This document shows positions 4,628 through 21,398 of a DNA stretch of 64,000 bases, piece by piece (the first letter of the stretch is position 1; each line of letters begins with the position of its first letter). A program made the translations under genes and the position numbers. The notes under the pieces were generated by a model. The model did not search any database, was not told the DNA's origin, and saw only the letters and a list, made by a program, of their open reading frames with translations. The stretch lies in NCBI GenBank assembly GCA_964650645.1, contig CAZYUH010000001.1:153873-217872 (forward strand), read 5' to 3'. The DNA comes from an uncultured Candidatus Saccharibacteria bacterium. GTDB lineage: Bacteria; Patescibacteriota; Minisyncoccia; Phycocordibacterales; SBAW01.

Positions 4628-4698
4628 CGCGCATCTCCTTTTTACACTGCAAAGATTCAGTCCTACCGGGCACTATAGCAAACGGTCGAGATTTTTGG

Positions 4699-4899: not shown

Positions 4900-5454
4900 T
4901 TATTGAGAACCCAACTGAGGGGGTATGGGCTTTAATATTTCTACCTGAGCCGGGTCAAGTTTGACTGTTTGTGTGTTAAAGAAAGCTAGCCAAATGGAAA
5001 TAACAGAAGATATGACGATAGCGAAGACAGAAATCCCGATAGCCCACATAGAAAGTGTTCTCGCCTCTCTTGAAGCCTCCCTAGCAAACTTCAACTCTTG
5101 ATAATCGAGGTACTTAAAGTGTGCGTCCAAAGTTAAGCTGTAACGATGCGAATCATCTTGAAATAGTGAGTTGTGTGGATGCCCAAGTAAAAGAAAAGGT
5201 GTTTCGTTATTACCACTTTCACCCATCACTTTAGATTGACGAGCGTTTGTATGAGCACTATGAAGATACTTCTCTACTATCGCTTTCTCCCACCTCAAAG
5301 TATCTTCTGTTAAGCCAAGGCCTTCAATTATTTCTTTATAAGAAAAACCACCAGGATGTTCAAGGCCAAAAGCAATAGCTTTCAGAAAAATATTGTCTTC
5401 AATTTGCGCTTCAAGTTTCCTTTTCTGAATGTCCTCTATGGAAGAAATCTTCAT
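4900..5454 (-). CDS. Hypothetical protein with C-terminal TM anchor (island cargo)
   Basis: 184 aa. Strongly AT-rich relative to flanks. Hydrophobic helix WAIGISVFAIVISSVISIWLAFF near the C-terminus. Immediately downstream of the Shedu-like gene. Confidence 0.5.
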   Translation of the reverse strand: MKISSIEDIQKRKLEAQIEDNIFLKAIAFGLEHPGGFSYKEIIEGLGLTEDTLRWEKAIVEKYLHSAHTNARQSKVMGESGNNETPFLLLGHPHNSLFQDDSHRYSLTLDAHFKYLDYQELKFAREASREARTLSMWAIGISVFAIVISSVISIWLAFFNTQTVKLDPAQVEILKPIPPQLGSQ

Positions 5455-5463
5455 AAGAATATT

Positions 5464-6687: not shown

Positions 6688-6985
6688 GTGAAAATTTATT
6701 TAACACGCCAATAGAACCATAGTCTTTGCCTATGGTAAAGAGCTAGCGTGGGCAGGCATCCGAGGCGCCCTACGGAGCTTCGTGCCGCGCCTAGCGGCAT
6801 GAAGGGGCGGGCTGCCCGCGCTAGCTAAAAGGTCCTTTACGGACAGGAGTTTCAGCTTCTTTTTCCGCTCCTGGCTTACGAGTATTTTCTTCTATCTTCT
6901 CAAGCAAATTTACTATTCGATTTTGCTTCCAGGGGGATTAGGGCTAAGCTCTTTAAGAAATTACTATTCGTGGTCTTTTATTTCT

Positions 6986-6998
6986 GAGGGAGGGATTC
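6986..6998 (-). repeat. Direct repeat of tRNA-Ser 3' end (copy 2)
   Basis: GAGGGAGGGATTC(G), identical 13-14 nt to the tRNA-Ser 3' region. Confidence 0.55.
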
Positions 6999-7135
6999 GG
7001 TCAGGCGTTCAAAGCTTGCCGTCGCAAGCTTTGCCGCACGACCCTGCCTCGCTCCCGCGCCTGCTGGCGCGGGACCCGCTCCGGCTTTCGAATCCCTCGC
7101 GCAAAGCGCCCCGCGCTTTGCTCCTCTCCGCCAAC
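6999..7135 (-). ncRNA. Structured repeat element A (tRNA-flank element family; possible ncRNA or recombination-site structure)
   Basis: Homologous to elements B, C and D. Shared core GCGAGGGATTCGAAAGCCGGAGCGGG. Hairpins GCAAAGCGC-GGG-GCGCTTTGC and AAAGCTTG-CGACGG-CAAGCTTT, with stems differing from the other copies by compensatory changes. Confidence 0.5.
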
Positions 7136-7168
7136 AAAAATGGCGCCCAAACGGCGCTCATGTTTTGT
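7136..7168. terminator. Terminator downstream of tRNA-Ser, embedded in a 10-bp inverted repeat
   Basis: GGCGCC-CAAAC-GGCGC hairpin flanked by T/A runs. Outer inverted repeat CTCTCCGCCA (7116-7125) / TGGCGGAGAG (7171-7180). Confidence 0.5.
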
Positions 7169-7170
7169 CT

Positions 7171-7264
7171 TGGCGGAGAGGGAGGGATTCGAACCCTCGA
7201 TACGGATATTACCCCGTATGGGGGATTAGCAATCCCCTGCTTTCAGCCGCTCAGCCACCTCTCC
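7171..7264 (-). tRNA. tRNA-Ser (anticodon GCT), CCA encoded
   Basis: Reverse complement GGAGAGGTGGCTGAGCGG...GGGGATTGCTAATCCCC...long variable arm...CGAGGGTTCGAATCCCTCCCTCTCCGCCA; cloverleaf with anticodon loop TTGCTAA. Confidence 0.85.
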
Positions 7265-7357
7265 TTTTATTTCAATTCCCCGCCCCAGGCATATCCCCTC
7301 GAGCGAAGCGACCTCTCCTTGCCTGCCTAATTTACACCAAAAAGCGCTCCGATGCAC

Positions 7358-7396
7358 CCTATAGAAAAGCCCGCCCGAGGGTATCGGGCGGGCGGG
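7358..7396 (-). terminator. Intrinsic terminator for the gene ending at 7403
   Basis: GCCCGCCCG-ATACCCTC-GGGCGGGC followed by TTTTCTAT on the minus strand. Confidence 0.5.
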
Positions 7397-7402
7397 CGTC
7401 TT

Positions 7403-7972
7403 CTATTCCGTAACAGCGGGCCTCGGATGGCGGACGTACAAGGGGTCCAGCTTCAGCTCCATTATGAGCTTCTCGCGCCAGCCCGGCCGCTCATCGAGCT
7501 TTTCGCGGCCGTCCCGCGGCCGGATCCCTCTCCGCGCATCCTGCTCCAAATGGCGGAGCGCCCGGGCGGCATCAAGCTTATCGAGCGCGCCGCTCAGGCC
7601 GACTATGTTCCAGTCCGACAGGGACAGGGTGGCACACCCTACCGTCAAGCCGACAAGCTCGCCGGTAGCGCAGTCTATCGCCGGGGACGCGTTCGAGTCC
7701 CCAGTCAGCCAGAACCCGTGAAGATACGCGTACTGGTACCTGGCCGAATAGACGCCATCCCAGCCGTCGGCATGGAGCGCCAGCCACGGGACGCGCCGCC
7801 ACTCCTCCTTCTGCGCGCGCACGTACGCGCGGACTCCTGCAACAAGCTCCTTGCGATCGGAACGTATCTTCCCAAGCAAATCCTCCACTGCACCCTCCGT
7901 TGTGAACAAAAGCCTGGGCAGAGCGTACTCCAGGACGCCCCGCCGGGCAACCCGCGCACCAGCGCCGGACAA
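7403..7972 (-). CDS. Hypothetical protein (189 aa)
   Basis: Balanced amino-acid composition versus the overlapping P/R/G-rich + strand ORF. Has its own terminator. No family recognised. Confidence 0.4.
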   Translation of the reverse strand: MSGAGARVARRGVLEYALPRLLFTTEGAVEDLLGKIRSDRKELVAGVRAYVRAQKEEWRRVPWLALHADGWDGVYSARYQYAYLHGFWLTGDSNASPAIDCATGELVGLTVGCATLSLSDWNIVGLSGALDKLDAARALRHLEQDARRGIRPRDGREKLDERPGWREKLIMELKLDPLYVRHPRPAVTE

Positions 7973-8214
7973 AAAACGCCCCGGGAGTCCGGGGCGCTTC
8001 CTATAGTCCCATGGACGTCGCCATAACGTTTATGGTGGCGTTCGGGATGGCCGCATGCGGGCAGTCGGCGAATATGGCGCATGCGTCCTCGTGCGTTTCC
8101 GCCTGCACTACCTGCAGGAAGCTGAGGTCGTTGCGCCCTGCGGCGTGCCTGCGGCCTGAAACCCGTGGCATACTTACAAGCGTTACCAGTAACCAAGCTT
8201 TCGCTATTCGCATG

Positions 8215-8628
8215 TCGCATAAATTCTTGCGCGAGGCCGCCAAGTTCTGCGCAGGCCTCGTCGCCGCCGATTTCCTTACGCTCATGTGGGCGTGGTCCAA
8301 CGACCTCTTCCCCGTGCAGACGTGGGGCGTGTCGTGGAGCGCCGACGTGGTGCTCCCGGCCGCCGCGTTCGACATCGGCCTCTTTATCATCCTCGTGCAC
8401 TACGGCTGGCACCTGGGCCGCATCCCGCGCCCCAAGGAGCGCATGTACCTGCTCGTCGCGGGCGCCATATTCAGCGTCGTTGCCGTAGCGCACCTCGTGC
8501 GCATCTTCACCCAGGGCGACTTCGTCCTGTGGGGCTGGACGGTGCCGCTGTGGCTCTCGTGGCTGGGCACGATGATAGCCGCTTACCTCGCGTACGCGAG
8601 CTTCCACTTCAGCGCGCGCTCGCGCTAA
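8215..8628 (+). CDS. Hypothetical integral membrane protein (~137 aa)
   Basis: Internal ATG MSHKFLREAAKFCAGLVAADF...; four hydrophobic helices; ends at a strong terminator. The antisense 318-aa ORF is R-rich and rejected. Confidence 0.4.
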   Translation, partial: SHKFLREAAKFCAGLVAADFLTLMWAWSNDLFPVQTWGVSWSADVVLPAAAFDIGLFIILVHYGWHLGRIPRPKERMYLLVAGAIFSVVAVAHLVRIFTQGDFVLWGWTVPLWLSWLGTMIAAYLAYASFHFSARSR

Positions 8629-8643
8629 CGGCGGGACGCGGGC

Positions 8644-8679
8644 AAAAAAAGGCCGGCGCATGCGCGCCGGCCTTTTTCC
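8644..8679. terminator. Bidirectional intrinsic terminator
   Basis: AAAAAAAGGCCGGCGCATGCGCGCCGGCCTTTTTCC. Confidence 0.6.
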
Positions 8680-9852
8680 TTACAGCGCCCGCAGGGGCTC
8701 GGGGCCGGGCGCGACGCCCGCGCCGGCGTTAATGATGAGATGGTTCTCAAGGACGGGCGCCACGATGTTGCGCCTTATTTTCTGCTGGGCGATGAGGACG
8801 GTCGAGAGCTTTATGGAGGCGTCCAGCGCCTCGGCGAACGCCGCGTCCGCCGCGTCGTAGTCGCGCGCCTGAAGGGCCTCGTCGCCCGCGACCATGAGCG
8901 CGTCTATCTCGCTGAGCTTGCCGGTCACTTGCGCGGTAGTCGAAGCGTCGAGGCTGTCCTTGGTGTCGTTGAAATTCGCGCGCACGTAGACGACCGCGCT
9001 CTGCGCCCGGCCCATGAGCTTGCTCGCGGCGCGCTCGCGCTCGGGATCCTCCTCAGGCGTCGGCGCGGCGGCCGTAGTGCTGGCGCCCCCGGTAGTCGAA
9101 GCGTCCTGCGCATCCGCGGCGATATTCGCGGAGAGCATGGCCGGCTCTGCCGCCGTACCGGCCTTCATAAAGGCCTGGGGCGCGGCCGCCGATCGCATCA
9201 TGCTCCTTGCGGGCGCGTCCGCGCGCTCGGCGCCCGCGCGGGCGAGCACGCGCACCGCGATGCCCTCCGAGGCGTCGCCCACGCCGTTGTCCTGGCCGAG
9301 CGCCGCGAGTATCGCGCCGTGGGCGGCGAGCGACGAATCGAGCGCGGCCTTGAGCGAGGCGCCCGTGTCGGGGTCGCTCTTGGCGACGTCATCGGCCAAT
9401 TCGGCCGCGGCCTGCGCGTGCGTCTCGAAACTCGCGGCGAGCTTCTCGGACGTGCCGGACGTCAGGCTCCCCTGCGCCGCCAACGCCTCCGCCTCCTCGA
9501 TGCGCCGCTGGGCGAGCTTGGCCTGCACCTGTGCCTTCGCGACGGGCGTGGTAGCGAGCGCCACCTCGACCGTTTCGTTCACGGACACCTTCACCGCGTA
9601 AAGCGCGTCGCCCGGAAGCGCGCCGCGCGCCGCGAACGCCGTGCCGGTCCCGGCGAACACCGCGAGCACCGCCGCCAAGGGCGCAAGGACGCGCACGCGC
9701 ATGAACTGGTGCGCGAACATGAAATACGGGCTCTGCCTGGGCGCCTTCGCCGCGGGCGACGGCATGCCGAATATCCGCGCTTTCATCGCGGCCTTTTCCC
9801 CGGGCGTGAGCCCGAGCTTCTTCGATTCGTTCTTTATATTGGTGAGTTCCAT
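8680..9852 (-). CDS. Anti-sigma factor-like membrane protein (DUF5667-like extracytoplasmic domain)
   Basis: 390 aa. TM segment VLAPLAAVLAVFAGTGTAFAA. Ala-rich periplasmic region. Starts 4 nt after the ECF sigma stop, the typical CPR sigma/anti-sigma pair. Confidence 0.5.
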   Translation of the reverse strand: MELTNIKNESKKLGLTPGEKAAMKARIFGMPSPAAKAPRQSPYFMFAHQFMRVRVLAPLAAVLAVFAGTGTAFAARGALPGDALYAVKVSVNETVEVALATTPVAKAQVQAKLAQRRIEEAEALAAQGSLTSGTSEKLAASFETHAQAAAELADDVAKSDPDTGASLKAALDSSLAAHGAILAALGQDNGVGDASEGIAVRVLARAGAERADAPARSMMRSAAAPQAFMKAGTAAEPAMLSANIAADAQDASTTGGASTTAAAPTPEEDPERERAASKLMGRAQSAVVYVRANFNDTKDSLDASTTAQVTGKLSEIDALMVAGDEALQARDYDAADAAFAEALDASIKLSTVLIAQQKIRRNIVAPVLENHLIINAGAGVAPGPEPLRAL

Positions 9853-9856
9853 TCTT

Positions 9857-10399
9857 TTATTCCCGCGCTGGCCCGTCCTCCAGGAGCACTTTGAGCTTGC
9901 GCAGTCCGCGGTGCACGCGCACCGACACCACGTTCTCGCTCGCGCCTATGAGCCCCGCTATCTCCTGCGGCGAAAGCCCGTCGACGTAGCGCAGGGCGAC
10001 GGCCTCGCGGTAAGGCTCGGCAAGCTCCCTCAGCGCCGCGAGCGCGCGTGCGCCCTCGTGCCTTCCTACGGCCGCCTCCAGCGTGTTGCTCTCGTCGGGG
10101 CTCATGAAGTCCTCGACGCCCATGTCCGCCTTCTCGGCCATCGCCTCAAGCGAGACGACCTTGTGCTTGCGGTACTCGTCGATGATGAGGTTGCGCAAGG
10201 TCCGGTACAGGAAGGGCCTGATTTCCCGGATGTCGGCGGCGCCCTTCTGGGCGTACGCCCAGGTCTTCATGAAGGTCTCCTGGGTCAGTTCCATGGCCCG
10301 CTCCCGGTCGCTGAGCCTGATGCTCGCATGGCGAAAGAGCTCGTCGCTGTAGGCCTCGAAGGCCTCCTCAAAGCTGTGCCGTAGGTCATCCATATGCAT
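9857..10399 (-). CDS. RNA polymerase sigma-70 factor, ECF subfamily
   Basis: 180 aa; region 2 (FEEAFEAYSDELFRHA...) and region 4 (ALRYVDGLSPQEIAGLIGASENVVSVRVHRGLRKL) motifs. Confidence 0.8.
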   Translation of the reverse strand: MHMDDLRHSFEEAFEAYSDELFRHASIRLSDRERAMELTQETFMKTWAYAQKGAADIREIRPFLYRTLRNLIIDEYRKHKVVSLEAMAEKADMGVEDFMSPDESNTLEAAVGRHEGARALAALRELAEPYREAVALRYVDGLSPQEIAGLIGASENVVSVRVHRGLRKLKVLLEDGPARE

Positions 10400-10478
10400 A
10401 GACGCGCCAGCGCCCCGAACCTTTCAAGCGCAAGTACCTTATAGTGTACCGCGCCCGCATGCAAGCCCCCGCATGGCG

Positions 10479-11654
10479 CTAGCGCATGGCCCGCGCTACC
10501 GCTTTGGCTACCCCTTTTTCAAACGGGCCGGGTATTATCTTGCCGGCCGAGGGCTTCTTAACGAGCGCCGCAAGGTTGCGCGCCGCTTTGACCTTCATGG
10601 CGTCGGTTATCATGCGCACCTTATTATCGAGCGCGCCGCGGAATATGCCGGGAAACGCCAGCGAGTTGTTCACCTGGTTGGGGTAGTCCGAGCGGCCGGT
10701 CGCCACCACCGCCGCGCCCGCTTCAAGCGCCAGTTCGGGGAGTATCTCGGGCGTCGGGTTGGCCATCGCGAACACGACGGGCCGCGGCGCCATGGAGCGC
10801 ACCATGTCCTGCGTGACGACGCCGGGCTTGGAGACGCCGATGAATATGTTGGCGTCCACCAGGGCCATGGACAGGTCGCCGCCCTTTTCAGCGAAGATAA
10901 TCCCGTCGCTTATGAGCTTCTTCTTCGTATCGTTAAGGTCCGCGCGGCCCTTCCACACCACGCCCGCGCTGTCGGCCGCGACGATGTTCACGCGCGGCGC
11001 GGCGAGCTTGATGAGCCTCATGATAGCGACGCCCGCGGCGCCGACCCCGCTCACGACTATCCAGCAGTTAGGGTCGTTGAGCGACTTCTTCAGGACTTTC
11101 GCCGCATTGATGAGCCCCGCCAAGACGACGATGGCGGTGCCGTGCTGGTCGTCGTGCATCACGGGGATGTCGAGCCGCTTCTTTAATTCGTCTTCGATAT
11201 AAAAGCACTTGGGCGCGGCGATGTCCTCTAAATTGATGCCGCCGAAGCCGGGCGCGACGGCCATGACCGCCTCGATTATCTTGTCGGGGTCCTGCGTATC
11301 GAGCACCAGCGGGAACGCGTCCACGTCCGCGAACGCCTTGAAGAGCGCGCACTTCCCTTCCATGACCGGGAGCGCGCCCACGGGGCCGATGTTGCCGAGC
11401 CCCAGCACCGCCGAGCCGTCGCTTACCACCGCGACCGTCCTGCCCTTTATGGTGTAGTCGCGCGCGAGCTTCGGGTTCTTCGCCACGAGCGAGGACACCG
11501 CCGCCACGCCCGGCGTATATATAAGCGAAAGATCGTCGCGGGTTTTGACCGGCTGAGCGGGCACCACGCGCACCTTGCCTCCGAGCTTCTTGTGCAGGGC
11601 CAGGGCCGCCTTGGATACGTCCTTTCTGCCGCGCGCTGTGCGGGAATTTTGCAT
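10479..11654 (-). CDS. NAD(P)-dependent malic enzyme (short MaeB-like form)
   Basis: 391 aa; LSLIYTPGVA, VSDGSAVLGLGNIGP and GVGAAGVAI blocks characteristic of malic enzymes. Confidence 0.8.
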   Translation of the reverse strand: MQNSRTARGRKDVSKAALALHKKLGGKVRVVPAQPVKTRDDLSLIYTPGVAAVSSLVAKNPKLARDYTIKGRTVAVVSDGSAVLGLGNIGPVGALPVMEGKCALFKAFADVDAFPLVLDTQDPDKIIEAVMAVAPGFGGINLEDIAAPKCFYIEDELKKRLDIPVMHDDQHGTAIVVLAGLINAAKVLKKSLNDPNCWIVVSGVGAAGVAIMRLIKLAAPRVNIVAADSAGVVWKGRADLNDTKKKLISDGIIFAEKGGDLSMALVDANIFIGVSKPGVVTQDMVRSMAPRPVVFAMANPTPEILPELALEAGAAVVATGRSDYPNQVNNSLAFPGIFRGALDNKVRMITDAMKVKAARNLAALVKKPSAGKIIPGPFEKGVAKAVARAMR

Positions 11655-11702
11655 AGGTGCCAGTGTACCACGCGGCGGCCGCGAATTTCATATAATAGGC
11701 CC

Positions 11703-13871
11703 ATGCATCCCGACAGCGCGCTCACCGAGCACTTCCGGCTCACCGACCTCCAGCGCGCGGCGCTCGGCAAGCTCGGCATCCTGACGGTGCGCGACCTGTT
11801 GTACCACTTCCCCTCCCGCTACGAGGTCGCGGGCGAGGGCGCGGAAATCGCGGGCCTCGTCGCGGGCCAGGAGGCATCGGTGGTGGGCGCGCTCGAGAAG
11901 CTGGAGGCGAAGAAGGGCTGGAAGTCGCGCATCCCCATGACCGAGGGCTTTTTGCGCGACTCGACCGGCCGCATCAAGTGCCGCTGGTTCAACCAGCCCT
12001 ACATCTCAAAAATGTACGCCGACGGCACGCTCGTGCGCGCGACGGGCAAGGTCGCAGGCAGCGAGGGAAAGCTGTACCTCGCCAACCCGCAGCTTGAGAA
12101 GGTATCGGTGACGGAGGGCGCGCTGTTCGAGAAAGAGAAGGTCATCAATGCCGACTCGGGCGAAGACGTGCGCGAGCTGTTCGCCATATACCCGGAGAGC
12201 CGCGGCACGACGTCGCTCTGGATGCGCCATGCCGTCGCGAAGTTCCTCGCGGGCGGCGCGCTTGAGAAGCTGGAAGACCCCATCCCTGCCGAACTCCTGA
12301 AGCGGTACAATCTTCCGACCCTACGCACGGCCCTGGTATGGGCGCATACCCCGCACGAACTGAAGCAGGCCGAAGCGGCGCGCAAGCGCTTCGCGTTCGA
12401 GGAGGTGTTCATGATCCAGCTTGAGCGCGGCCGCGAGCGCGCGCTCCAGGCGAAGGAAAAGAGCTTCGTCATAAGCACGCCCGAGGAAAGCGTGCAGGCG
12501 TTTATCGACGCCTTCCCGTTCGAGGCAACCGACGCGCAAGTGGGCGCGATAGAGGCGATACTTGCCGACATGCGCGCGGGCCACCCGATGTCGCGCCTGC
12601 TTGAAGGCGACGTAGGCTCAGGAAAGACCGCCGTTGCCGCCGCGGCCGCCCACGCGGTCGTCGAGACGCGCCCCGAGGGCCGGAAGAACGGCACGCTCCA
12701 AGTGGCCTACATGGCGCCCACCGAAATACTGGCCAAGCAGCACTTCGAATCATTCATAAGGTATTTCGAGCGCTTCCCCATCCAGATAGGGCTCATCACC
12801 GGCTCGGGATGCTTCAAGTTCCCGTCCAAGGTGTCGCCCGAAGGGTACACCGCCATCTCGCGCGCGCAACTCTTGAAGTGGGTCATGAGCGGCGAGATAC
12901 CGGTGCTCATCGGCACGCACGCGCTCATACAGAAGGCGGTGCAGTTCAAGCACTTGGCGCTTGTCGTGATAGACGAGCAGCACCGCTTCGGCACGGGCCA
13001 GCGCCGCGCGCTCGCGCGCAAGGAGGCCCGCCTGCCGCACCTCTTGAGCATGACCGCCACGCCCATCCCGCGCACGCTCGCCCTGACCGTATACGGCGAC
13101 CTTGATCTTACCCTGCTCGACCAGATGCCGCCGGGCCGCAAGCCGATCATTACCGAAATTGTCAGGCCCGCCGAGCGCCCACGGGCGTACGCAAAGATGC
13201 GCGAGCAGCTCGCCGAGGGCCGGCAGGCGTACGTCATCTGCCCGCGCATCGACGAGCCGGACCCGGACAAGGCTTTTGCCCTCCAGGCCAAGTCGGTTAC
13301 GGCCGAAGCCAAGCGGCTTAAAAAAAGCGTGTTCCCTTCGCGCGAAATCGGCATCCTCCATTCGAAGATGACGCCCAAGGAAAAAGACGATGTCATGGCG
13401 CGCTTTTCCAGCCACGAGATAGACATACTGGTGGCGACGAGCGTGGTCGAGGTCGGCGTCAACGTCCCCAACGCGACGATGATATTCATAGAAGGCGCCG
13501 AGCGCTTCGGCCTCAGCCAGCTCCACCAATTGCGCGGGCGCGTCGTGCGCTCGAACCATCAGGCCTACTGCTTCGTCTGCCCCGAGAGCCGCGGCGAGCC
13601 CACATTGGCCCGGCTTAAGGCGCTCGTGACCGCGAAGAACGGATTCGAGCTGGCTGAGCAGGACCTGCTTCAGCGCGGGCCCGGCGAACTATCGGGCCGC
13701 AAGCAGTGGGGCATCTCCGACATCGGCATGGAGGCATTGAAGAACCTCAAGCTGGTCGAGGCCGCGCGGGCAGAGGCGCTGGCCGTTATCCAAAAAGACG
13801 GAACGCTCGCCCGCCACCCCCTGCTTTCCCAGGCGCTCGCGGCCCGGGCCGCGCAGATGCATTTGGAGTGA
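11703..13871 (+). CDS. recG: ATP-dependent DNA helicase RecG
   Basis: Wedge domain followed by helicase motifs (GDVGSGKTAVAA, DEQHRFG, TATPIPRT). ORF 11592..13871 trimmed to MHPDSALTEH. Confidence 0.85.
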   Translation: MHPDSALTEHFRLTDLQRAALGKLGILTVRDLLYHFPSRYEVAGEGAEIAGLVAGQEASVVGALEKLEAKKGWKSRIPMTEGFLRDSTGRIKCRWFNQPYISKMYADGTLVRATGKVAGSEGKLYLANPQLEKVSVTEGALFEKEKVINADSGEDVRELFAIYPESRGTTSLWMRHAVAKFLAGGALEKLEDPIPAELLKRYNLPTLRTALVWAHTPHELKQAEAARKRFAFEEVFMIQLERGRERALQAKEKSFVISTPEESVQAFIDAFPFEATDAQVGAIEAILADMRAGHPMSRLLEGDVGSGKTAVAAAAAHAVVETRPEGRKNGTLQVAYMAPTEILAKQHFESFIRYFERFPIQIGLITGSGCFKFPSKVSPEGYTAISRAQLLKWVMSGEIPVLIGTHALIQKAVQFKHLALVVIDEQHRFGTGQRRALARKEARLPHLLSMTATPIPRTLALTVYGDLDLTLLDQMPPGRKPIITEIVRPAERPRAYAKMREQLAEGRQAYVICPRIDEPDPDKAFALQAKSVTAEAKRLKKSVFPSREIGILHSKMTPKEKDDVMARFSSHEIDILVATSVVEVGVNVPNATMIFIEGAERFGLSQLHQLRGRVVRSNHQAYCFVCPESRGEPTLARLKALVTAKNGFELAEQDLLQRGPGELSGRKQWGISDIGMEALKNLKLVEAARAEALAVIQKDGTLARHPLLSQALAARAAQMHLE

Positions 13872-13896
13872 CGGTGCGCTATAGTGGTCAGCATCG

Positions 13897-13968
13897 GGCG
13901 CGTAGCTCAGTGGTAGAGCCGTCGTCTTATACACGACTGGTCGCAGGTTCGATCCCTGCCGCGCCCAC
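13897..13968 (+). tRNA. tRNA-Ile-like with anticodon UAU (TAT); CCA not encoded
   Basis: GGGCGCG-TA-GCTCAGTGGTAGAGC-C-GTCGT-CTTATAC-ACGAC-TGGTC-GCAGGTTCGATCCCTGC-CGCGCCC-A. Body resembles tRNA-Ile2. Confidence 0.7.
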
Positions 13969-13982
13969 AATGATTCGCAAAT

Positions 13983-14002
13983 ACGGCCGGGGGCCGTTTT
14001 TT
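13983..14002 (+). terminator. Intrinsic terminator after tRNA-Ile
   Basis: CGGCCGGGGGCCG followed by TTTTTTG. Confidence 0.55.
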
Positions 14003-14102
14003 GCGAGGCATCATTGCGAGGATGCGACAGGGGTCGAATGCCGGAGCAGCTTGGCTGCGAGGCGGGGTCGCGCAAATTTCCAGCAGGAAATTATGCGTGA
14101 CC
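14003..14102 (+). ncRNA. Structured repeat element D (shorter/degenerate copy of the family)
   Basis: GCGACAGGGGTCGAATGCCGGAGC ... GCGAGGCGGGGTCGCG ... AAATTTCC-AGCA-GGAAATT ... TGCGTGACC, homologous to A, B and C. Ends at a repeat of the tRNA-Ile 3' end. Confidence 0.4.
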
Positions 14103-14119
14103 GATCCCTGCCGCGCCCA
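14102..14119 (+). repeat. Direct repeat of tRNA-Ile 3' end (att-like)
   Basis: CGATCCCTGCCGCGCCCA is identical to 13951..13968 (T-loop 3' half + T-stem + acceptor 3' strand). Confidence 0.55.
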
Positions 14120-14193
14120 CTTCCATACATCCCCCCTCCGTGCTACCGTGCTTCAGGACTTCTTTCACCATCACCCACCGGAAGGATACTCCA

Positions 14194-15183
14194 ATGAAGC
14201 TGAGAGGCATACCGTTCAAGCCCTGCTGGGACGCTGCAGGCCTGCGCGGCTGGGGCGGCGAGGGCTACTGGTTCCACCATGCGCCGGTCATCCGCCGCAT
14301 GTACGACTTCAGCGGCTCCACGAGGGTTGCCAAGACCACGACCATGTACCAGCACAGGGGCAACATGCCCCTGAAAGGGCCGGCGGAAAAGTACGCGCCC
14401 AAAGAGAGCTTCCCGCGGTGCGTCTGGTGGTCCTTTGCGGGCGGCCGGACGGTCAACGCCGTCGGGCTCTCGGGACCCGGCGCTCACCTGCTCGGAAACG
14501 ACCTGTTCTGGGCAAGCGACAAGGAGCCGTACATGATTTCCTTCATGTCCGTCAGGCCGGCTTTTGAGGAGCGGCTGGAAGAACTGGCCCAATTCTGCAC
14601 GCTGCTCGACGGGCAGCTGCGAGGGACTGAGCAGGCACAACGGATAGCCCTGCAGATAAACCTGAGCTGTCCCAATACCGGGCTTGATACCGGGCACCTC
14701 ATGCATGAGGCTGCCCGGATGCTCGACATAGCGGCACGGGCGCCGGTGCCGAAGGTTGTAAAGGTCAACATACTGCCGCCAGCAAAAGCGGTCGCGGAGA
14801 TAGCACGGCACAAGGAGTGCGACGCGCTGTGCTTTTCCAACACCCTGCCGTTCGGCTCCTTGCCGGACAAGATAGACTGGAAGCGCCTGTTTCCAAAGGG
14901 GTCGCCCCTGCTCAGAAGGGACGAATGCTTTGGCGCCGGCGGATACTCGGGGCCGGAACTCCTGCGCCTGGTATGCGAGTACGGCCGAGCACTGCGCGAG
15001 GCCGGGGTCGAAAAGCCCTTCAACCTCGGCGGCGGCATCCGCAAGCCCCGCGACGTGGACTACGCCGTAGCGCACGCAGGGCTGCGCCGGGGCAAGGACT
15101 CGGTGTTCTTCGCGTCGGCGGCAATGGTGCGGCCGTGGAATATCCGCGGCATCATCAGGCGCGCCCACGAGCTTTTGGGCTGA
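14194..15183 (+). CDS. Dihydroorotate dehydrogenase-like (PyrD family) TIM-barrel flavoprotein
   Basis: RBS GGAAGGA before MKLRGIPF. INLSCPNTG matches the DHODH/DHPD N-x-S-C-P-N motif. Divergent elsewhere. Confidence 0.5.
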   Translation: MKLRGIPFKPCWDAAGLRGWGGEGYWFHHAPVIRRMYDFSGSTRVAKTTTMYQHRGNMPLKGPAEKYAPKESFPRCVWWSFAGGRTVNAVGLSGPGAHLLGNDLFWASDKEPYMISFMSVRPAFEERLEELAQFCTLLDGQLRGTEQAQRIALQINLSCPNTGLDTGHLMHEAARMLDIAARAPVPKVVKVNILPPAKAVAEIARHKECDALCFSNTLPFGSLPDKIDWKRLFPKGSPLLRRDECFGAGGYSGPELLRLVCEYGRALREAGVEKPFNLGGGIRKPRDVDYAVAHAGLRRGKDSVFFASAAMVRPWNIRGIIRRAHELLG

Positions 15184-15286
15184 CGCAGACGCCGGCCCGG
15201 CGCCCCCCTTGGGGTGGCGCCGGGCTTTTTCTTTTGGTACAGTCTGCGCGGACAAAGAACGCCAACAGCAAAAGGAACAGCACTCA

Positions 15287-16540
15287 ATGGACCAGCACTC
15301 CATAGACCTCGTTTTTTCCGATCCCGAGCCTGCCCCCGACTATCCCGCCGCCGTTACCGTGCCGGCCGTGTTCAACAGCCACGGGCACCCGCGCGACACC
15401 GTAGCCGAAGGCGACGGCCGCGCGGAGATGATGGTTCCGCTCTACGCGGAAGCGTTCGGCGACGTAATGGGCATGGGCAACACCATGCAGCCCCTCGTCA
15501 CCGCGGACCTGGCGCGGCGCAAAGGGGCGCAGTGGCGCGCGCTCATACCCGGGGGCAGCCCGCTCAGGATCCACGTCGCAGGGCTCATGCACGAGGGCAC
15601 CAGCGCCGACGAGGTACTCGCCGGGTACGACGCGCCCGGGCATGAGCAGGCGTGGATCGCGATGAAGATGTTCATGCGCTCGGTGTCCAACTCGAGCGGC
15701 GCCGACGTTGACGACCTCTCCCGCGTCATGCCCGTCATACGGGCGATGGCCGGGGCCGACTTCAGGTACCGCAAGGGGCCGATGCCGCTGTGCGTGCACG
15801 CCGAGCGCAAATACTATCCCGGCGGCAAAAGGGTGCACTTCCTCGACCGCAGCAAGGAGTCCATGGAGCGCGACATACGGCGCATCTTCAGGGAAGCGCC
15901 GGCGGCCCGCGTCATCGTCTGCCACGTCAGCAGCAAGCACGCGGTCGGCGTGATACGCGAGATGCGCGGCAGGAGGTTCGACATCTGGGGGGAGATCGCG
16001 CCGCACTACGCGCAGTTCTCGTGCGACGACCTCTTCGAGGGGCCGGGCGGGAGCACCAAGTTCAACTCGCACCTCTTCTGCCTGCCTATATTCGGCACGG
16101 AGGAGGACCGCAAGGCCATAAAGGAGGCGATGCTCTCCGGGGAGCCGTGGTGGTTCTACGGCGATGACGGGGCGTGCCATTGGGACGACCCCGCCCGCCC
16201 GGGAGGGGTCAAGATTGACTCCGACGGGTTCGTCACCGGAGGGCAGGCGCAGATCCCGCGCGCGGCCGTCTCGTACGTTATCGAGACGTTCGCCGAGGCG
16301 GGCAAGCTCGGGCTTCTGCCGGACTTCCTCTCGCGCAACGGCCGCAGGGCGTTCCACTTGCCCGAGGCCGGGCACGAGGCGGTGTTCGAGCGGCGCGAAT
16401 GGAAAGTGCCGCGCGAGATTGCGCTCGACTCCCCGGCCCTGGGACTGCGCCGGGCCCGCGTGGCCATGGGCGGCAAGACCCGCCGCTACTGGCCCAAAGG
16501 AGTCCCCCTGGGTTCGAACGACGACCCTTCCGAAGGCTGA
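15287..16540 (+). CDS. Dihydroorotase-like amidohydrolase (type II PyrC-like, with insertions)
   Basis: FNSHGHPRD (cf. HLHLRD of E. coli PyrC), HLFCLPI (cf. LYCLPILK), GDDGACHW (cf. GTDSAPH). 417 aa versus 348 for E. coli PyrC. Confidence 0.5.
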   Translation: MDQHSIDLVFSDPEPAPDYPAAVTVPAVFNSHGHPRDTVAEGDGRAEMMVPLYAEAFGDVMGMGNTMQPLVTADLARRKGAQWRALIPGGSPLRIHVAGLMHEGTSADEVLAGYDAPGHEQAWIAMKMFMRSVSNSSGADVDDLSRVMPVIRAMAGADFRYRKGPMPLCVHAERKYYPGGKRVHFLDRSKESMERDIRRIFREAPAARVIVCHVSSKHAVGVIREMRGRRFDIWGEIAPHYAQFSCDDLFEGPGGSTKFNSHLFCLPIFGTEEDRKAIKEAMLSGEPWWFYGDDGACHWDDPARPGGVKIDSDGFVTGGQAQIPRAAVSYVIETFAEAGKLGLLPDFLSRNGRRAFHLPEAGHEAVFERREWKVPREIALDSPALGLRRARVAMGGKTRRYWPKGVPLGSNDDPSEG

Positions 16541-16555
16541 GAGAAAGACAGCAAG

Positions 16556-16586
16556 CGCCCCGGCTACCAAGCCGGGGCATTTTTTC
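16556..16586 (+). terminator. Intrinsic terminator
   Basis: GCCCCGGC-TACCA-AGCCGGGGC followed by ATTTTTTCG. Confidence 0.6.
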
Positions 16587-16633
16587 GCGTGCTACACTGT
16601 ATTTTTAGAGCACTCGAAGAAAGGGGCGCGCAG

Positions 16634-16834
16634 ATGCGCAAGATAGATTACAACCTCCCCCATACCCATCCCCACAACATAGAGACCGCCCGCCTGCTCG
16701 GGCTCGTCTGGAGCGAGCGGGACCACCTGTACGTCAGCGCAGCCGACGGCTCCATCCCCGCCGGCTATGAAGGCGAGTTCGACAGCATATGGGGCCGCCT
16801 GAGCAGGAGCGACAAGGTATACGCGCACAAGTAA
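16634..16834 (+). CDS. Small hypothetical protein (66 aa)
   Basis: RBS AAAGGGG before MRKIDYNLPHTHPHN. Followed by terminator 16841..16872. Confidence 0.35.
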   Translation: MRKIDYNLPHTHPHNIETARLLGLVWSERDHLYVSAADGSIPAGYEGEFDSIWGRLSRSDKVYAHK

Positions 16835-16840
16835 AGAAGA

Positions 16841-16872
16841 CCCCCGGCTCGCACGCCGGGGTTCCCTTTTTA
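16841..16872 (+). terminator. Intrinsic terminator
   Basis: CCCCGGC-TCGCAC-GCCGGGG followed by TTCCCTTTTT. Confidence 0.5.
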
Positions 16873-17095
16873 AAACGCGCGGTATATAGTGCGCCAAGCG
16901 CAACGTTCTTGGAGGAAGCTTGTGACCGCAGGCAAGAAGGCAATCGGCTACATCGACCTGGCAGCAGACGCGTTCTTCTCTTTCTGCCTCACGCCCTTTA
17001 TGGGCAGGAAGGCTTGGAGGGGCTTTCCGCGCACCCCGGAAGCCCGCTCAGTGCTTAGGGAGTGGCGCAGGAAGCGGCACGCCCGGCAGTAGCGG

Positions 17096-17135
17096 CAAAA
17101 AAAACGCCCGGCTCATGGCCGGGCGTTCTTTTTTT
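17096..17135. terminator. Bidirectional terminator (serves ftsH)
   Basis: AAAAAAAACGCCCGGCTCATGGCCGGGCGTTCTTTTTTT. Confidence 0.65.
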
Positions 17136-17142
17136 ATAAGCC

Positions 17143-19083
<1,941 letters not shown>

Positions 19084-19172
19084 GAGACACTCATCATACC
19101 ATTTCCCCCGTATTTTAAAAGAAAACGCCGCCGAGCCATGCTCGGCGGCGAAAGCGCCTCTTCCCTGCTTTT

Positions 19173-19808
19173 TCAGTCGGTCGGCATCACGTACGCGTAC
19201 ACGCGCCCGCGCGGGACCACTGTTTCAAGAACGCGCCTGCGGCTGGACCCCTGGCCCCAGGTGTTGCCCGATACGACAACCGGATTGCCGCGCTTGTCGA
19301 TGCCGCTCACGACGCCCACGTGGCCTCCGCCGCCGCGCCGCCCCATGACGGCGATGGCGCCGACCTGCGGCCCGTGCACGCGCCGCCCGTAATGGGCGTA
19401 GCCTCTTGCGAGATTGCCGCCGCCCCTGTGGCCGGTGCGCCTCAGGACCATGTCCACGAAGTGCCCGCACCATACGCGCGACCAGCCGGTCGGGTTGGTC
19501 CCGATATGGCTGCGCGCCTCGGCCACGAGGCTATTGCCTGACGCCGAATAGCTCCAACCCCGGCTCTCCGAGCGGTAGTGCCGCGCCGAATGCCTGCGGA
19601 CCCGCCTTTGCGCGCGGTAGTACCCTTCTGGGTACTCCCACGACCAGTCTGCGCCGTAGTACGGCGAGTACTGGGCCTGGTAGCCCCAGCTTGCCCGGTA
19701 GTGCCGCGCCGATGCCGGCGAAGCCGCGAACAGGATGGAGCAGAGCGCAAGGAACAGGATCCTGCATATATTCGTTCTCACTACTAGTCTCCGTTGCTGT
19801 TTCAACAA
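19173..19808 (-). CDS. Secreted CHAP-domain protein (putative peptidoglycan hydrolase)
   Basis: Signal peptide ILFLALCSILFAASPASA. C-terminal WCGHFVDMVL ... GHVGVVSGID matches the Cys/His CHAP amidase motifs. Confidence 0.55.
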   Translation of the reverse strand: MLKQQRRLVVRTNICRILFLALCSILFAASPASARHYRASWGYQAQYSPYYGADWSWEYPEGYYRAQRRVRRHSARHYRSESRGWSYSASGNSLVAEARSHIGTNPTGWSRVWCGHFVDMVLRRTGHRGGGNLARGYAHYGRRVHGPQVGAIAVMGRRGGGGHVGVVSGIDKRGNPVVVSGNTWGQGSSRRRVLETVVPRGRVYAYVMPTD

Positions 19809-19918
19809 GGAAGGCCCCGCTTGCGCGCGGCGTTCTGCCGTAAGGACTTCCTTTTTCTTAATACCACACTTCTGTACAAATGCAAGTATTTTGCGCCCGG
19901 GCGTGGTATAGTCACCCC

Positions 19919-20362
19919 ATGGCGCTCATAGAGCACAAGAAAGCCAGGCTCAATTACGAGATCCTCGAGGAGTTCGAGGCGGGCTTGGAATTGCTCGGCA
20001 GCGAGGTGAAGAGCCTGCGCCAGGGCTTGGGCAAGCTCGAGGGCAGCCATATAATAGTGCGCGGCGGCGAGGCCTACGCGGTCGGGATGCACATCCCGCC
20101 CTACCAGCCGCTCAATACCGCGCCCGACTACGACCCTGACCGCTCGCGCCGCTTGCTCCTCAGCAAAAAGGAGCTTTCGCGGCTCAGCGACTACGAAGCG
20201 CAGAAGGGCTTGACAATAGTGCCACTTAGGGTGTATAATAAGGGGAAGTATCTCAAGCTCGCGCTGGCGGCCGCGAAAGGCCGTAAGAACTACGACAAGC
20301 GCGCCGTCTTAAAGGAGAGGGACACCAAGCGCGAGATAGAGCGCACCTTGAAAAACCAATAA
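19919..20362 (+). CDS. smpB: SsrA-binding protein SmpB
   Basis: MALIEHKKARLNYEILEEFEAGLELLGSEVKSLRQG... is canonical SmpB. Adjacent to tmRNA. Confidence 0.85.
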   Translation: MALIEHKKARLNYEILEEFEAGLELLGSEVKSLRQGLGKLEGSHIIVRGGEAYAVGMHIPPYQPLNTAPDYDPDRSRRLLLSKKELSRLSDYEAQKGLTIVPLRVYNKGKYLKLALAAAKGRKNYDKRAVLKERDTKREIERTLKNQ

Positions 20363-20430
20363 CAGCAGGCCGTGTCTGCTGGCATTCGCGTACGGAGCCC
20401 CTCCCCTTTTTCTTCGGAGGGGCCCCGCAT

Positions 20431-20809
20431 GGGGATGCCAGGCTTCGACAGCGGGACCGCTGGCGCGATGCGCGAAGTAGAAGCGGGAATCTTCTTAAAA
20501 ATATCCCACCCAATAACTGCCAAGTCAGTTGCATCGCCGTATTTCTCGGCGAACCAGTTCTCTTTCGCTTACGCGAGGGCGTAACTGGCATCCTCCAATC
20601 CTCGTCTGATGGATTGGTCCGGGTGTTATAAACCAGACTATAGCTGGTGGCCGTAATGCAGCCATCAGCCGAACAAACGCATTTGCAGACCTAAGGTATT
20701 TCGTCCGCTTTACAGCCTTAGCGTCTAAAGAAGCCTAAAGCAGACTACACTTCGTAGAAGCCCGCTGCCTCGCCCCGTTGCACGGGGGTTCGATTCCCCC
20801 CGTCTCCAC
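20431..20809 (+). ncRNA. ssrA: tmRNA (SsrA); putative tag reading frame GCG AAC CAG TTC TCT TTC GCT TAC GCG AGG GCG TAA (ANQFSFAYARA*)
   Basis: 5' GGGGATGCCAGGCTTCGACAGCGGGA and 3' GGGGGTTCGATTCCCCCGTCTCCACC form the tRNA-like domain (acceptor GGGGATG/CGTCTCC with G-U pairs). Immediately downstream of smpB. The short ORFs overlapping it are spurious. Confidence 0.8.
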
Positions 20810-20822
20810 CCGTTAAAACATT

Positions 20823-20850
20823 TGCGCCCTTTCGGGCGCTTTTGTTTTTT
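20823..20850 (+). terminator. Intrinsic terminator after ssrA
   Basis: GCGCCCTTTCGGGCGC followed by TTTTGTTTTTTT. Confidence 0.65.
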
Positions 20851-20854
20851 TGGG

Positions 20855-20984
20855 TGTAGACGGGAAGAGCGTTTGAGCGCTCTTCGCGGGGGAATCGAAG
20901 GGCGCAGCATTGCGCCGCACTGGCGGCGCCGCGAGCCGGGGTCGCGAAAAATTTTTGCGACGGCAAAAAGTTATTTGTGGCCGA
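20855..20984 (+). ncRNA. Structured repeat element C
   Basis: GAAGAGCG-TTTGA-GCGCTCTTC hairpin, core GCGGGGGAATCGAAGGGCG, GCCGGGGTCGCG, then hairpin TTTTTG-CGACGG-CAAAAA. Followed directly by a copy of the ssrA 3' end. Confidence 0.5.
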
Positions 20985-20998
20985 CTCCCCCGTCTCCA
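20985..20998 (+). repeat. Direct repeat of ssrA 3' end (att-like)
   Basis: TCCCCCGTCTCCAC is identical to 20795..20808 inside the tmRNA. Confidence 0.55.
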
Positions 20999-21033
20999 CA
21001 AAATCGCAAAAGCTCCCTTCGGGGAGCTTTTGC
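20994..21033 (+). repeat. ~40-nt direct repeat (partial ssrA end + terminator hairpin); left boundary of low-GC island
   Basis: TCCACAAAATCGCAAAAGCTCCCTTCGGGGAGCTTTTGC is repeated at 23926..23965 with 2 mismatches/indels. Confidence 0.55.
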
Positions 21034-21165
21034 ATTTGCGGGACGGAGAAATGTCCGGAGGACATTTCGCGGGGAATCGAAAGCCGGAGCGGGCCCCGTG
21101 CCAGCAGGCAGGGTCGTGCGGCCAATAGTGCGACGGCACTATTGGAACGCCTGACCAACTCCGCT
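21034..21165 (+). ncRNA. Structured repeat element B
   Basis: GAAATGTCC-GGA-GGACATTTC hairpin, core GCGGGGAATCGAAAGCCGGAGCGGGCC, CAGGGTCGTGCGG, hairpin CAATAGTG-CGACGG-CACTATTG, then GAACGCCTGACC. 80-90% identical to A in the core, with compensatory stem changes. Confidence 0.5.
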
Positions 21166-21398
21166 TATTCTCAATAAAGATGAAAAGTCTATTTATTCAG
21201 TTGTACTTTCAGTGTAACAGAGCCCAAAAGCCCGCTCTAGTGGGGTGGATTTGACCCATATCTTCAGATATACCCTCCCCCGTTTGACCGAGGTTTTCCG
21301 AGGTTAAGGAGAGCGTGATAAGAAGCGTCGCGGGCGCGTCTGACGCGTGCTCCCGGCACAAAATTAGACCTTAAAGCTATTAGCAGTAAGATGGTGCC

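Follow-up and report, generated by a model that had tools for sequence, protein, structure and literature searches.

The window analyzed in this study, a stretch of 64,000 nucleotides (nt) from an uncultured Candidatus Saccharibacteria bacterium (contig CAZYUH010000001.1), contained four copies, here called A, B, C, and D, of a structured element that lies behind transfer RNA (tRNA) and transfer-messenger RNA (tmRNA, ssrA) genes; positions follow the numbering of the window. The element family is real, widespread, and apparently undescribed, judged by Rfam 15 and the literature that could be searched. The element resembles a tRNA-targeting integrative element, yet it does not fit the definitions of integrase islands, MITEs (miniature transposable elements with inverted repeats), or known RNA families. 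The explanation that we favor, with a probability of about one half, is a non-autonomous insertion element that would enter the T-loop between positions 55 and 56, replace the tRNA's 3' end, and use its core as a folded single strand in cis, the enzyme being supplied in trans.

A was found behind tRNA-Ser(GCT), D behind tRNA-Ile(TAT), and C followed by B behind ssrA, in each case on the strand of the RNA gene (Table 1); these assignments by ARAGORN, Rfam, and the sequence itself agree with the placement and orientation given in an earlier note on this DNA. The four copies align with one another and share one architecture (RNAfold z-scores of -3.5 to -5.0), with a common fold of a closing stem, a three-way junction, and two hairpins. 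In order, the parts are X1, which runs from tRNA position 56 to the 3' end; a spacer, which includes a terminator in some copies; X', the exact complement of tRNA positions 54 to about 70, often interrupted by a hairpin (hairpin 1, lacking in D); the two-hairpin core; and X2, a second, decaying copy of the tRNA end. The whole measures about 150-200 nt and contains no open reading frame (ORF). The duplicates of the gene 3' end that had been described beside A, C, and D are exact over 14 nt (6986-6999 = 7178-7191), 14 nt (20986-20999), and 19 nt (14102-14120 = 13950-13968), respectively. No further copy was identified in the window, as the covariance model gave at most 19 bits everywhere else; the 19-bit match at 19509-19620(-) was rejected as coding-like sequence without the core motifs.

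A search pattern derived from A-D (TCGAANGSCGSAGC-N(12-42)-GGGTCGYG-N(20-40)-TGRCC) matched at least 120 loci in the GTDB species representatives. Among the matches listed, 4 were clear chance matches in coding DNA and 3 others were set aside as doubtful, and the genuine copies in species-representative genomes number at least 116. According to the record titles of the listed matches, the hosts included 43 Saccharibacteria, 19 Paceibacteria/Paceibacterota, 28 other named Patescibacteria, 8 Elusimicrobia, 1 WS2, and 15 unclassified bacteria, and two labels (Gammaproteobacteria and Nanoarchaeia) are probably binning errors; about 90 of these copies thus belong to the Patescibacteria/candidate phyla radiation (CPR). 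A known RNA family was rejected in line with the earlier note, which had recognized none: only the tRNA and tmRNA genes of the window passed the gathering thresholds of Rfam 15, and permissive E-value scans of the B/C region and five small loci returned only hairpin- or terminator-type chance matches far under threshold. Similarly, no description of the element was found in the full-text literature (subscription journals not covered), where the nearest topic was the unrelated group I introns in the anticodon loop of patescibacterial tRNA genes (PMC13011429).

The fold of the element was evaluated in an alignment of 117 sequences (A2) for four helices, namely P1, P2a, P2b, and P3. P1 has 9 bp; P2a has the form GSC/GSC, with covariation between GCC/GGC and GGC/GCC in 36 sequences; and P3 consists of GGUCG/UGACC followed by a variable hairpin, P2 and P3 being joined by a few invariant bases. 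Partners paired in 90.5% of cells, compared with 33-44% when the 3' partners were slid by 1-3 columns, and double-sided changes occurred in 702 cells versus 230 ± 13 in shuffled alignments. The covariation score was 0.47 versus 0.14 after shuffling, with 0 of 500 shuffles reaching the observed value, and RNAalifold agreed with the tested structure. The constancy of the G.U pair in P3a is not independent evidence, because the search pattern itself requires it; with that pair removed, the ratio of G.T to A.C was 81:20 in P2 and P3, and it was 54:62 in P1, which looks like a decaying duplication. The G.T excess in P2 and P3, together with the covariation, indicates that the core folds on the tRNA-sense strand, either as RNA or as single-stranded DNA. 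The compensatory change that the earlier note took as the mark of a selected structure was therefore borne out in the larger sample, although most of its "single-stranded cores" are in fact paired, GGGTCG with TGACC (P3a) and GCC with GGC (P2a). Hairpin 1, upstream of the core, was present in 78 of 111 copies and had a CUGC loop in 25; the P3 loops were GACG (inside CGACGG) in 39 copies, AGCA in 23, and GAA in 10, and those of P2 were AGCA in 21 and ACGG in 12.

This constraint bears on the possibility that the copies are inert scars, that is, attL/attR sites of integrase-borne islands whose interior and integrase have been deleted. Integration by tyrosine integrases classically leaves a repeat that runs from the T-loop to the 3' end, and the cargo islands of the window are bracketed by the same repeats. 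Scars, however, would lose both the compensatory covariation and the strand-specific G.T excess, which persist over hundreds of lineages, and classical arm-type binding sites are not covarying hairpins. Cores are also near-identical across classes, and no full-length relative with an integrase beside the core was found in about 200 loci. We consider this origin very unlikely.

Several variants of the fold were observed. At A2 columns 84/120, inside P3 (7039/7004 in A), the C-G pair of most copies gives way to a U.C mismatch throughout the A/B subtype (GGGTCGTG...CCTGACC), a consistent and non-Watson-Crick change that hints at a non-canonical pair or at a tertiary or protein contact. In some elements, the core is separated from the tRNA-end copy, 3' of TGACC-GA, by an additional mini-hairpin (NNG-UAAU/UACU-CNN, or a longer stem of the form GUG...CAC), and their repeat begins 13-30 nt past the core (comparison loci L030, L037, L067, L085, L026, L014, L031, L177, L182, and L184). 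Minimal variants at L177 3839-4040 and L170 3109-3320 are devoid of hairpin 1 and of the TCGAA segment, and their closing stem is formed by the last 4 nt of tRNA-Ile and the trailer (GACAATT; ACAAAAG) rather than by the T-loop and T-stem.

The element is closely tied to the RNA gene upstream. A same-strand tRNA or tmRNA gene was located 24-190 nt upstream in 95 of the 122 matches listed, covering 18 amino-acid specificities, and one more apparent orphan sits behind a tmRNA missed by ARAGORN. The repeat shared by the gene and its 3' flank begins at T-loop C56 in most copies, adjoins the last C of TGRCC in 55 of 96, and mostly ends within 2 nt of the gene 3' end; its median exact length is 15.5 nt, with variation from 13 to more than 27 nt. 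X' complements the gene from T54 onward, and the TCGAA that had been read as a core motif is instead the complement of TTCGA at T-loop positions 54-58. T-loop variants are matched by X' as well, TTCAA by TTGAA (L126, L183) and TCCGA by TCGGA (L144, L146, L152), with L147 as an exception. The earlier note had assigned the downstream copy, X2, as the pairing partner of this 5' arm. This assignment was revised, since X1 was a better partner of X' than X2 in 55 copies and a poorer one in 5, the two being about equal in 42 (median duplex energies of -17.4 and -15.25 kcal/mol for X1 and X2, respectively), indicating that X2 is a decaying partner.

Where the gene itself lacks a full CCA, as in tRNA-Ile and ssrA, X2 reproduces the gene sequence (..CCCAC|TT and ..CTCCAC|AA) and not CCA. 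This result indicates that the repeats were copied from DNA or a precursor, and a copy of mature tRNA was rejected on the same ground, the X2 of C and D having no added CCA. A duplicated tRNA gene with an insertion was also rejected: instead of copying the tRNA 5' strand and its G.U pairs, the 5' arm is Watson-Crick complementary to the 3' strand, CCA or the discriminator included in A, C, and L011.

The missing CCA is also a point against a self-splicing or self-cleaving, ribozyme-type intron in the T-loop that would bring its own spare 3' exon and spread through reverse splicing. Such an intron might be suggested by the fixed nucleotide inside an RNA gene, the conserved junction with invariant bases, and the arms that pair with both "exon" sides, and the Patescibacteria are known for tRNA insertions and rich in tRNA introns (PMC13011429). 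However, the group I introns reported there lie in the anticodon loop and are much larger, the core of the element being far smaller than a group I intron, and no ribozyme or intron family matched in Rfam 15, permissive thresholds included. Moreover, fixing the insertion in DNA needs a reverse transcriptase, and none is linked to the element. An intron is thus highly improbable, and the least probable of the explanations considered.

Upstream of three orphans, L001 2194-2309(-), L013 1087-1200(+), and L028 117-229(-), several hundred nt are free of tRNA, tmRNA, and Rfam genes. Two of them, L001 and L013, have in common the motif GGTTCGAA(C/G)TTC at about 100 nt upstream, possibly the end of an unrecognized RNA gene.

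Occupancy differed among sites and among related genomes, as the earlier note had asked of a mobile element. In the comparison loci (numbered with L; 8-12 kb around each copy), 114 of 212 tRNAs had a copy and 98 had none. For ssrA, 80 loci were taken from a SmpB-anchored metagenome scan and chosen regardless of the element, and about 14 sites were filled and more than 25 empty. L126 has an orthologue of B directly behind ssrA, with a compensatory double change in the P3 stem (CCAATAGTG/CACTATTGG versus CCGATAGTG/CACTATCGG), then X2, and then the 'AAAATCGCAAAAGC...' trailer and terminator that close the array of the window. L124 has the terminator and X' only, L122 has the terminator only, and in L138, which has no element, ssrA is directly followed by the second terminator type. 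At tRNA-Ile, an orthologue of D is present in L123, followed by a truncated older copy; the outermost remnant there, CCACC-AAAAAGAAGACCCGCGG, is similar to the trailer of tRNA-Ile in L126, where the site is empty. Likewise, the third tRNA-Ser repeat of the window (4699-4712) is followed by CCA.

The fit of X' to X1 and these remnants lead to a model in which X1, the spacer, X', and the core lie between position 55 and the original 3' end, X2. Judging from these sequences, we favor an inserted unit made up of X1, spacer, X', and core, with X2 as the displaced original end, as in classical T-loop integration. Insertion behind the native terminator, with X2 borne by the element, was disfavored, since X' matches X1 and the outermost remnants have a native-type trailer or CCA. 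In addition, terminator 1 is about 90% conserved among relatives whose SmpB proteins are only 72-88% identical, and homologous terminators accompany cores at different tRNAs (L034/L111; L025, L084, and L083), which fits a terminator that is part of the element.

Tandem arrays were found in the window (C-B) and at L042, L044, L053, L059, L062, L063, L065, L102, and L183. The copy proximal to the tRNA scored higher in 8 of 8 comparable non-identical arrays, as well as in L059 and L062, and distal copies were truncated or held nested fragments (L053, L059, L123). Cores at different tRNAs in different CPR classes were 92-96% identical, stems included, for example between L034 (tRNA-Leu, Paceibacterota) and L111 (tmRNA, Saccharibacteria), whose terminators are homologous too, and between L051 (tRNA-Trp) and D. 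Because the stems otherwise vary freely, these near-identical cores point to recent horizontal exchange. Hairpin 1 of L147 resembles that of B and is joined to a different core and terminator, and from this case modules are seen, at the sequence level, to recombine between copies. The mobile-element reading of the earlier note thus gained from patchy sites, polar arrays, near-identical cores, and the start at the T-loop, and the integrase in trans that it proposed stays a matter of inference, no enzyme having been found.

Two arrays showed further features. In L059, a partial inverted core (6396-6470(+)) is nested between two same-strand copies behind tRNA-Arg(TCT), and the repeat surrounding the proximal copy extends over about 60 nt, through X' and hairpin 1. 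L087 2627-3005 comprises three 100% identical tandem units behind tRNA-Arg(CCT) with an N run, a possible assembly or scaffolding artefact.

Tyrosine-integrase islands and cis-mobilizable elements (CIMEs) of the Islander type (database paper, PMC4383910) integrate in tRNA and tmRNA genes, with the T-loop as a known crossover sublocation, and derivatives lacking the integrase exist. The element shares with them the insertion in the T-loop, the restored 3' end, the displaced 3' fragment at the far border, and arrays with the newest copy beside the gene. As in an Islander-type island, the far-border direct repeat of the tRNA 3' part is present (13-27 nt or more from C56). Unlike such islands, the element is only 150-200 nt long, has no integrase inside or enriched among the neighboring ORFs at about 200 copies, carries a built-in inverted copy of the tRNA end, and conserves a covarying, strand-specific fold instead of double-stranded arm sites. 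The covarying hairpins and the excess of G.T over A.C are at odds with a classical double-stranded attP. A MITE was rejected as well, as the ends (C56... and ...GTGAC) are without terminal inverted repeats and the repeat varies from 13 to more than 27 nt.

Folded single-strand recombination sites are known from the integron attC (IntI) and the attP(+) hairpin of the CTX phage (XerCD). In these sites, as in the element, structure is kept while the stem sequence is free, and polar tandem arrays occur; one strand is active, and a double-stranded site is made by intramolecular pairing, which X1:X' would provide in the element. The structural features of attC, covariation and the G.T bias in P2/P3, were thus found in the element, which nevertheless differs in targeting the tRNA T-loop rather than attI or dif and in having no R/L box consensus. 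The ends of IS200/IS605 elements, their miniature derivatives (palindrome-associated transposable elements, PATEs), and REPINs are moved by HUH Y1 transposases (RAYT for REPINs). The miniatures encode no protein and are moved in trans; they have hairpins inside their ends, no terminal inverted repeats, cleavage at hairpin feet, and a flank read by pairing. The geometry of the element is compatible with this arrangement, in that T54 and T55 pair with the AA of TCGAA in X' and this pairing covaries. In contrast to them, the element has a pairing arm of up to 20 nt instead of 4, a structured RNA gene as its target, and a duplication of part of that target, and no TnpA or RAYT gene was found among its neighbors within 8-12 kb around each copy.

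A linked enzyme was sought among the neighboring genes. BLAST clustering of 518 ORFs within 3.5 kb downstream gave no family in more than 4 loci, and Pfam annotation of the 99 nearest ORFs revealed housekeeping functions only (e.g., ClpB, RF-1, and Mur ligase), with no recombinase enriched and no TnpA or RAYT. About 30 ORFs of the window encode no recombinase, reverse transcriptase, or HUH domain, in agreement with the earlier note, which had seen no integrase gene there; nor was an integrase found beside about 200 other copies. The sole recombinase, in L071, was a large serine recombinase of 537 aa whose domains are Resolvase, Recombinase, and Zn_ribbon_recom. It was rejected as the enzyme of the element, because its CCGC|AA junctions mark an independent insertion that moved the element 4.2 kb away. 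In L071 (880-5350), the recombinase, a deaminase-like ORF, and a GrpB protein lie in this 4-kb insertion, exactly at the tRNA-Ser 3' end. Inverted copies of the flanks (970-1095 at 2500-2625; about 4990-5190 at 2625-2790) are suggestive of an inversion or of an attP-like junction that the insertion has retained.

The comparisons show an insertion between positions 55 and 56 of the T-loop of a tRNA or tmRNA gene, a replacement 3' end (X1) with which the gene stays intact, an inverted complement of that end (X'), a strand-specific folded core, and an order in which new copies enter beside the live gene while old ones decay. In the insertion mechanism that we propose, the element would bring X1, the spacer, sometimes with a terminator, the X' arm, often with a hairpin closed by a CUGC loop, and the P2/P3 core, and nothing else. 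The original 3' end would be displaced as X2 and then decay, and new copies would always enter at the live gene, by which older copies and cargo such as Shedu would be pushed outward and erode. The core and the X1:X' stem would act in cis, with the tRNA-sense strand single and folded, and the X1:X' helix and P3 would meet at one junction. In this fold, the left boundary (T55|C56) would be set two pairs into X1:X' and the right boundary (GAC|C) one pair into P3, at the feet of neighboring helices, where a strand-specific recombinase or transposase encoded elsewhere could cut and rejoin both. As this folded geometry resembles the substrates of attC, CTX attP(+), IS200/IS605, and REPIN systems, we favor a trans enzyme of that type, which by analogy might serve the element.

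Several observations weigh against this insertion mechanism. No enzyme was found near the copies, so mobilization in trans is what we infer, and neither an excised form nor a circle junction was observed. For a classical integrase, moreover, a circle of double-stranded DNA as small as 150-200 bp is poorly suited as a substrate. No copy was found in IMG/VR viral contigs with the strict pattern; a phage-borne attP was rejected, as the relaxed pattern gave 50 chance matches in GC-rich coding DNA, 0 of which fit the covariance model. The target-specific X1, X'a, and X'b (the two parts of an X' interrupted by hairpin 1) are interleaved with the conserved terminator, hairpin 1, and core, and a move to a new tRNA therefore needs several coordinated changes, which simple cut-and-paste cannot provide. 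We propose that each tRNA might have been colonized anciently and that modules were then exchanged between copies, for which shared X/X' in arrays and the conserved cores would give homology. Furthermore, X' has pairing partners beyond the element, T54 and T55, and these pairs form only in the integrated state or in a read-through transcript. A terminator-like hairpin separates the tRNA from the core in only 37 of 96 copies, and in view of this count co-transcription with the tRNA is probable for most copies. The tandem G.A motifs and the ANYA-type tetraloops, too, would not be out of place in an RNA.

The last three points favor a functional non-coding RNA (ncRNA), which read-through from the tRNA promoter would produce and whose action would be on the tRNA transcript, with the core as a ligand- or protein-binding module or a processing signal; we hold this possible, though clearly doubtful. 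X' would sequester the tRNA 3' half within a long hairpin, the tRNA body would close on X2, and a four-way junction (T stem, X1:X', P2, and P3) would replace the T-loop, while homologous recombination after DNA uptake, its left arm supplied by the conserved tRNA gene and its right arm by X, would account for its spread. The RNAfold minimum-energy structure of tRNA-Ile plus D is that very fold (-123 kcal/mol, z = -7.3), and the structure with its G.U pairs on the tRNA-sense strand, the conserved hairpin loops (CUGC, AGCA, and CGACGG), and the topology are also in keeping with an RNA. As in the tRNA-like domain of tmRNA and viral tRNA-like structures, there are an acceptor-like stem, a side hairpin, and a T-stem-like stem; unlike in those, the CCA can be paired (A, L011), and the 5' arm, rather than copying the tRNA 5' strand, complements the 3' strand in Watson-Crick fashion. 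On the other hand, the decay of the distal array copies and of X2 indicates that the closed RNA and the alternative tRNA fold are not kept long. About half of the tRNAs in the same loci have no copy, and related genomes differ at ssrA. The co-transcribed small RNA considered in the earlier note is thus compatible with the majority of copies lacking a terminator-like hairpin, but the 37 of 96 with such a hairpin before the core, the decay, and the patchy occupancy speak against it. The nearest downstream ORF was on the same strand in 57 cases and on the opposite strand in 42, with unrelated functions; a riboswitch or 5' leader was rejected for the same lack of consistent strand or function.

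Within the insertion framework, a tentative extension, which we think possible rather than probable, is that the core and arms are the cis or guide part of a new base-pairing-directed, single-strand insertion system able to address any tRNA or tmRNA 3' end. X' would read the target from T54, cleavage would occur at the helix feet, and a widely conserved CPR enzyme would act in trans. A more specific proposal, in which the core is the guide scaffold of a programmable recombinase or transposase encoded elsewhere and antisense X' and sense X2 each pair with one target strand, appears unlikely. In its favor, the conserved scaffold modules alternate with segments of 9-20 nt that match the target, an unchanged core is found at nearly all tRNAs and tmRNA, X' covaries with the target even outside the repeat, and repeated insertion at one site yields arrays. 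The bridge RNAs of IS110/IS1111 and the omega RNAs and reRNAs of TnpB and IscB similarly have an RNA-like scaffold flanked by target-matching segments, and complementarity sets their target, as we read it for the element. Nevertheless, no recombinase or nuclease gene is associated in cis at about 200 loci, no Rfam family matched, and the arms of the element are complementary to each other, whereas those RNAs hold their guides in internal loops or at a free 3' end. A working guide should also not decay as X2 does. X2 as the guide of a TnpB-like homing nuclease was rejected, since the restored tRNA gene itself would be cut.

Table 1. Coordinates of elements A-D, their parts, and the adjoining islands in the window.
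Feature	Positions	Strand	Remarks	Basis
tRNA-Ser(GCT)	7171..7264	-	Last 21 nt (7171-7191, T-loop C56 to CCA) = X1 of A	ARAGORN, Rfam, sequence
A spacer, terminator-like hairpin and T run	7134..7170	-	Stem 7143-7157	
A arm X'a (TGGCGGAGAGG)	7123..7133	-	Complement of tRNA-Ser acceptor 3' strand including CCA	Direct reading
A hairpin 1	7101..7121	-	GCAAAGCGC / GGG / GCGCTTTGC	
A arm X'b (GAGGGATTCGAA)	7087..7098	-	Complement of tRNA positions 54-65	
A conserved core	7000..7086	-	P2 (GCC..GGC and variable hairpin), P3 (GGGTCG..TGACC and hairpin, loop CGACGG)	
A repeat copy X2 (CGAATCCCTCCCTC)	6986..6999	-		
Low-GC island (39-41% GC vs about 64% in host)	4713..6985	-	Shedu SduA 5464-6687, 184-aa ORF 4900-5454; between X2 and X3	
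Repeat copy X3 (TGAATCCCTCCCTC), then CCA	4696..4712	-	Third tRNA-Ser end copy	
tRNA-Ile(TAT)	13896..13968	+	13950-13968 = X1 of D	ARAGORN, Rfam
D spacer	13969..14019	+	Terminator-like hairpin 13983-13997; inverted trailer copy 14000-14016	
D arm X' (GGATGCGACAGGGGTCGAA)	14020..14038	+		
D conserved core	14039..14101	+	Short P2, P3 loop AGCA	
D repeat copy X2 (CGATCCCTGCCGCGCCCAC)	14102..14120	+		
tmRNA (ssrA)	20431..20810	+	20791-20809 = X1 of C	ARAGORN, Rfam
C trailer and terminator 1	20810..20851	+	Stem 20824-20839; near-identical in relatives L122, L124, L126, L147	
C arms and hairpin 1	20852..20899	+	X'a 20852-20864, hairpin 1 20864-20885, X'b with TCGAA 20887-20899	
C conserved core	20900..20981	+		
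C repeat copy X2 (CGACTCCCCCGTCTCCAC)	20982..20999	+		
Trailer and terminator 2	21000..21033	+	With CCAC 20996-20999, first copy of 38-nt repeat	
B arms and hairpin 1	21038..21081	+	X'a 21038-21048, hairpin 1 21048-21068, X'b with TCGAA 21069-21081	
B conserved core	21082..21155	+	P2 partly deleted; lowest score of A-D	
B putative decayed ssrA 3'-end copy, CAATTCCGCCCATCTCC type	21156..21172	+		
Low-GC cargo (45-48% GC)	21173..23936	+	804-aa ORF 21399-23813	
CCAC, trailer, and terminator 2, second copy	23937..23975	+	Read as native ssrA end and terminator	Comparison with L126, L138

Two cargo islands are associated with the copies of the window. The Shedu island (about 2.3 kb, 4696-6999, -) is bracketed by exact 13-nt repeats (GAATCCCTCCCTC) that correspond to the 3' side of the tRNA-Ser T-arm, and it has no integrase; SduA was identified by PADLOC (E = 7.7e-116), and the 184-aa ORF has a predicted membrane tail. 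The duplicate of the tRNA-Ser end reported in the earlier note is therefore present, but the third copy means that the island is bracketed too; from its sequence, X3 may be the original tRNA-Ser 3' end with 4 nt lost. B was correctly described as followed by low-GC cargo; it appears to end in a decayed ssrA-type 3' end, and a 38-nt repeat (CCAC, trailer, and terminator; 20996-21033 and 23937-23975) brackets B and the cargo together. The 804-aa ORF had no match in Pfam, PADLOC, or the Protein Data Bank (PDB), and a relationship of its product to Shedu or to a solved structure was rejected for lack of similarity; a PD-(D/E)xK-like motif (...DLIVLIGKFALVIEAKSGG...) was spotted in it by eye. Neither island has a core at its far end, and such cargo is rare in the other loci. 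The islands may be separate insertions into the displaced tRNA fragment and not into the live gene. In this fragment an island could land safely, whereas in the live gene it would be lethal unless it rebuilt the tRNA.

CPR organisms have tiny genomes and few recognized mobile elements. If mobile, the family would represent an abundant class of genetic parasite or an insertion platform in these organisms and would explain the origin of displaced tRNA fragments and small defense islands behind CPR tRNA genes. A covarying structured nucleic acid also gives a handle for finding the partner enzyme. Pairing of the arm, if it sets the target, would be of direct interest for programmable DNA insertion, and the programmable reading, if true, would mean natural sequence-addressed insertion, defense cassettes included, with no dedicated integrase per site. 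If the element is an RNA instead, it would constitute a widespread new RNA class tied to tRNA transcripts. In either case, these blocks of about 100 nt are now unannotated, can mislead callers of tRNA fragments and islands, and belong in RNA-family or mobile-element annotation.

The surrounding DNA is a housekeeping chromosomal region, with genes encoding EF-Tu, EF-G, L2, FtsH, RecG, and SmpB, and it also encodes a CPR-typical DUF5667 protein. Additionally, a sigma-70-type promoter with a 12/12 match (TTGACA, 18 nt, TATAAT) was identified at 20210-20239(+), inside the 3' part of smpB and about 190 nt before ssrA.

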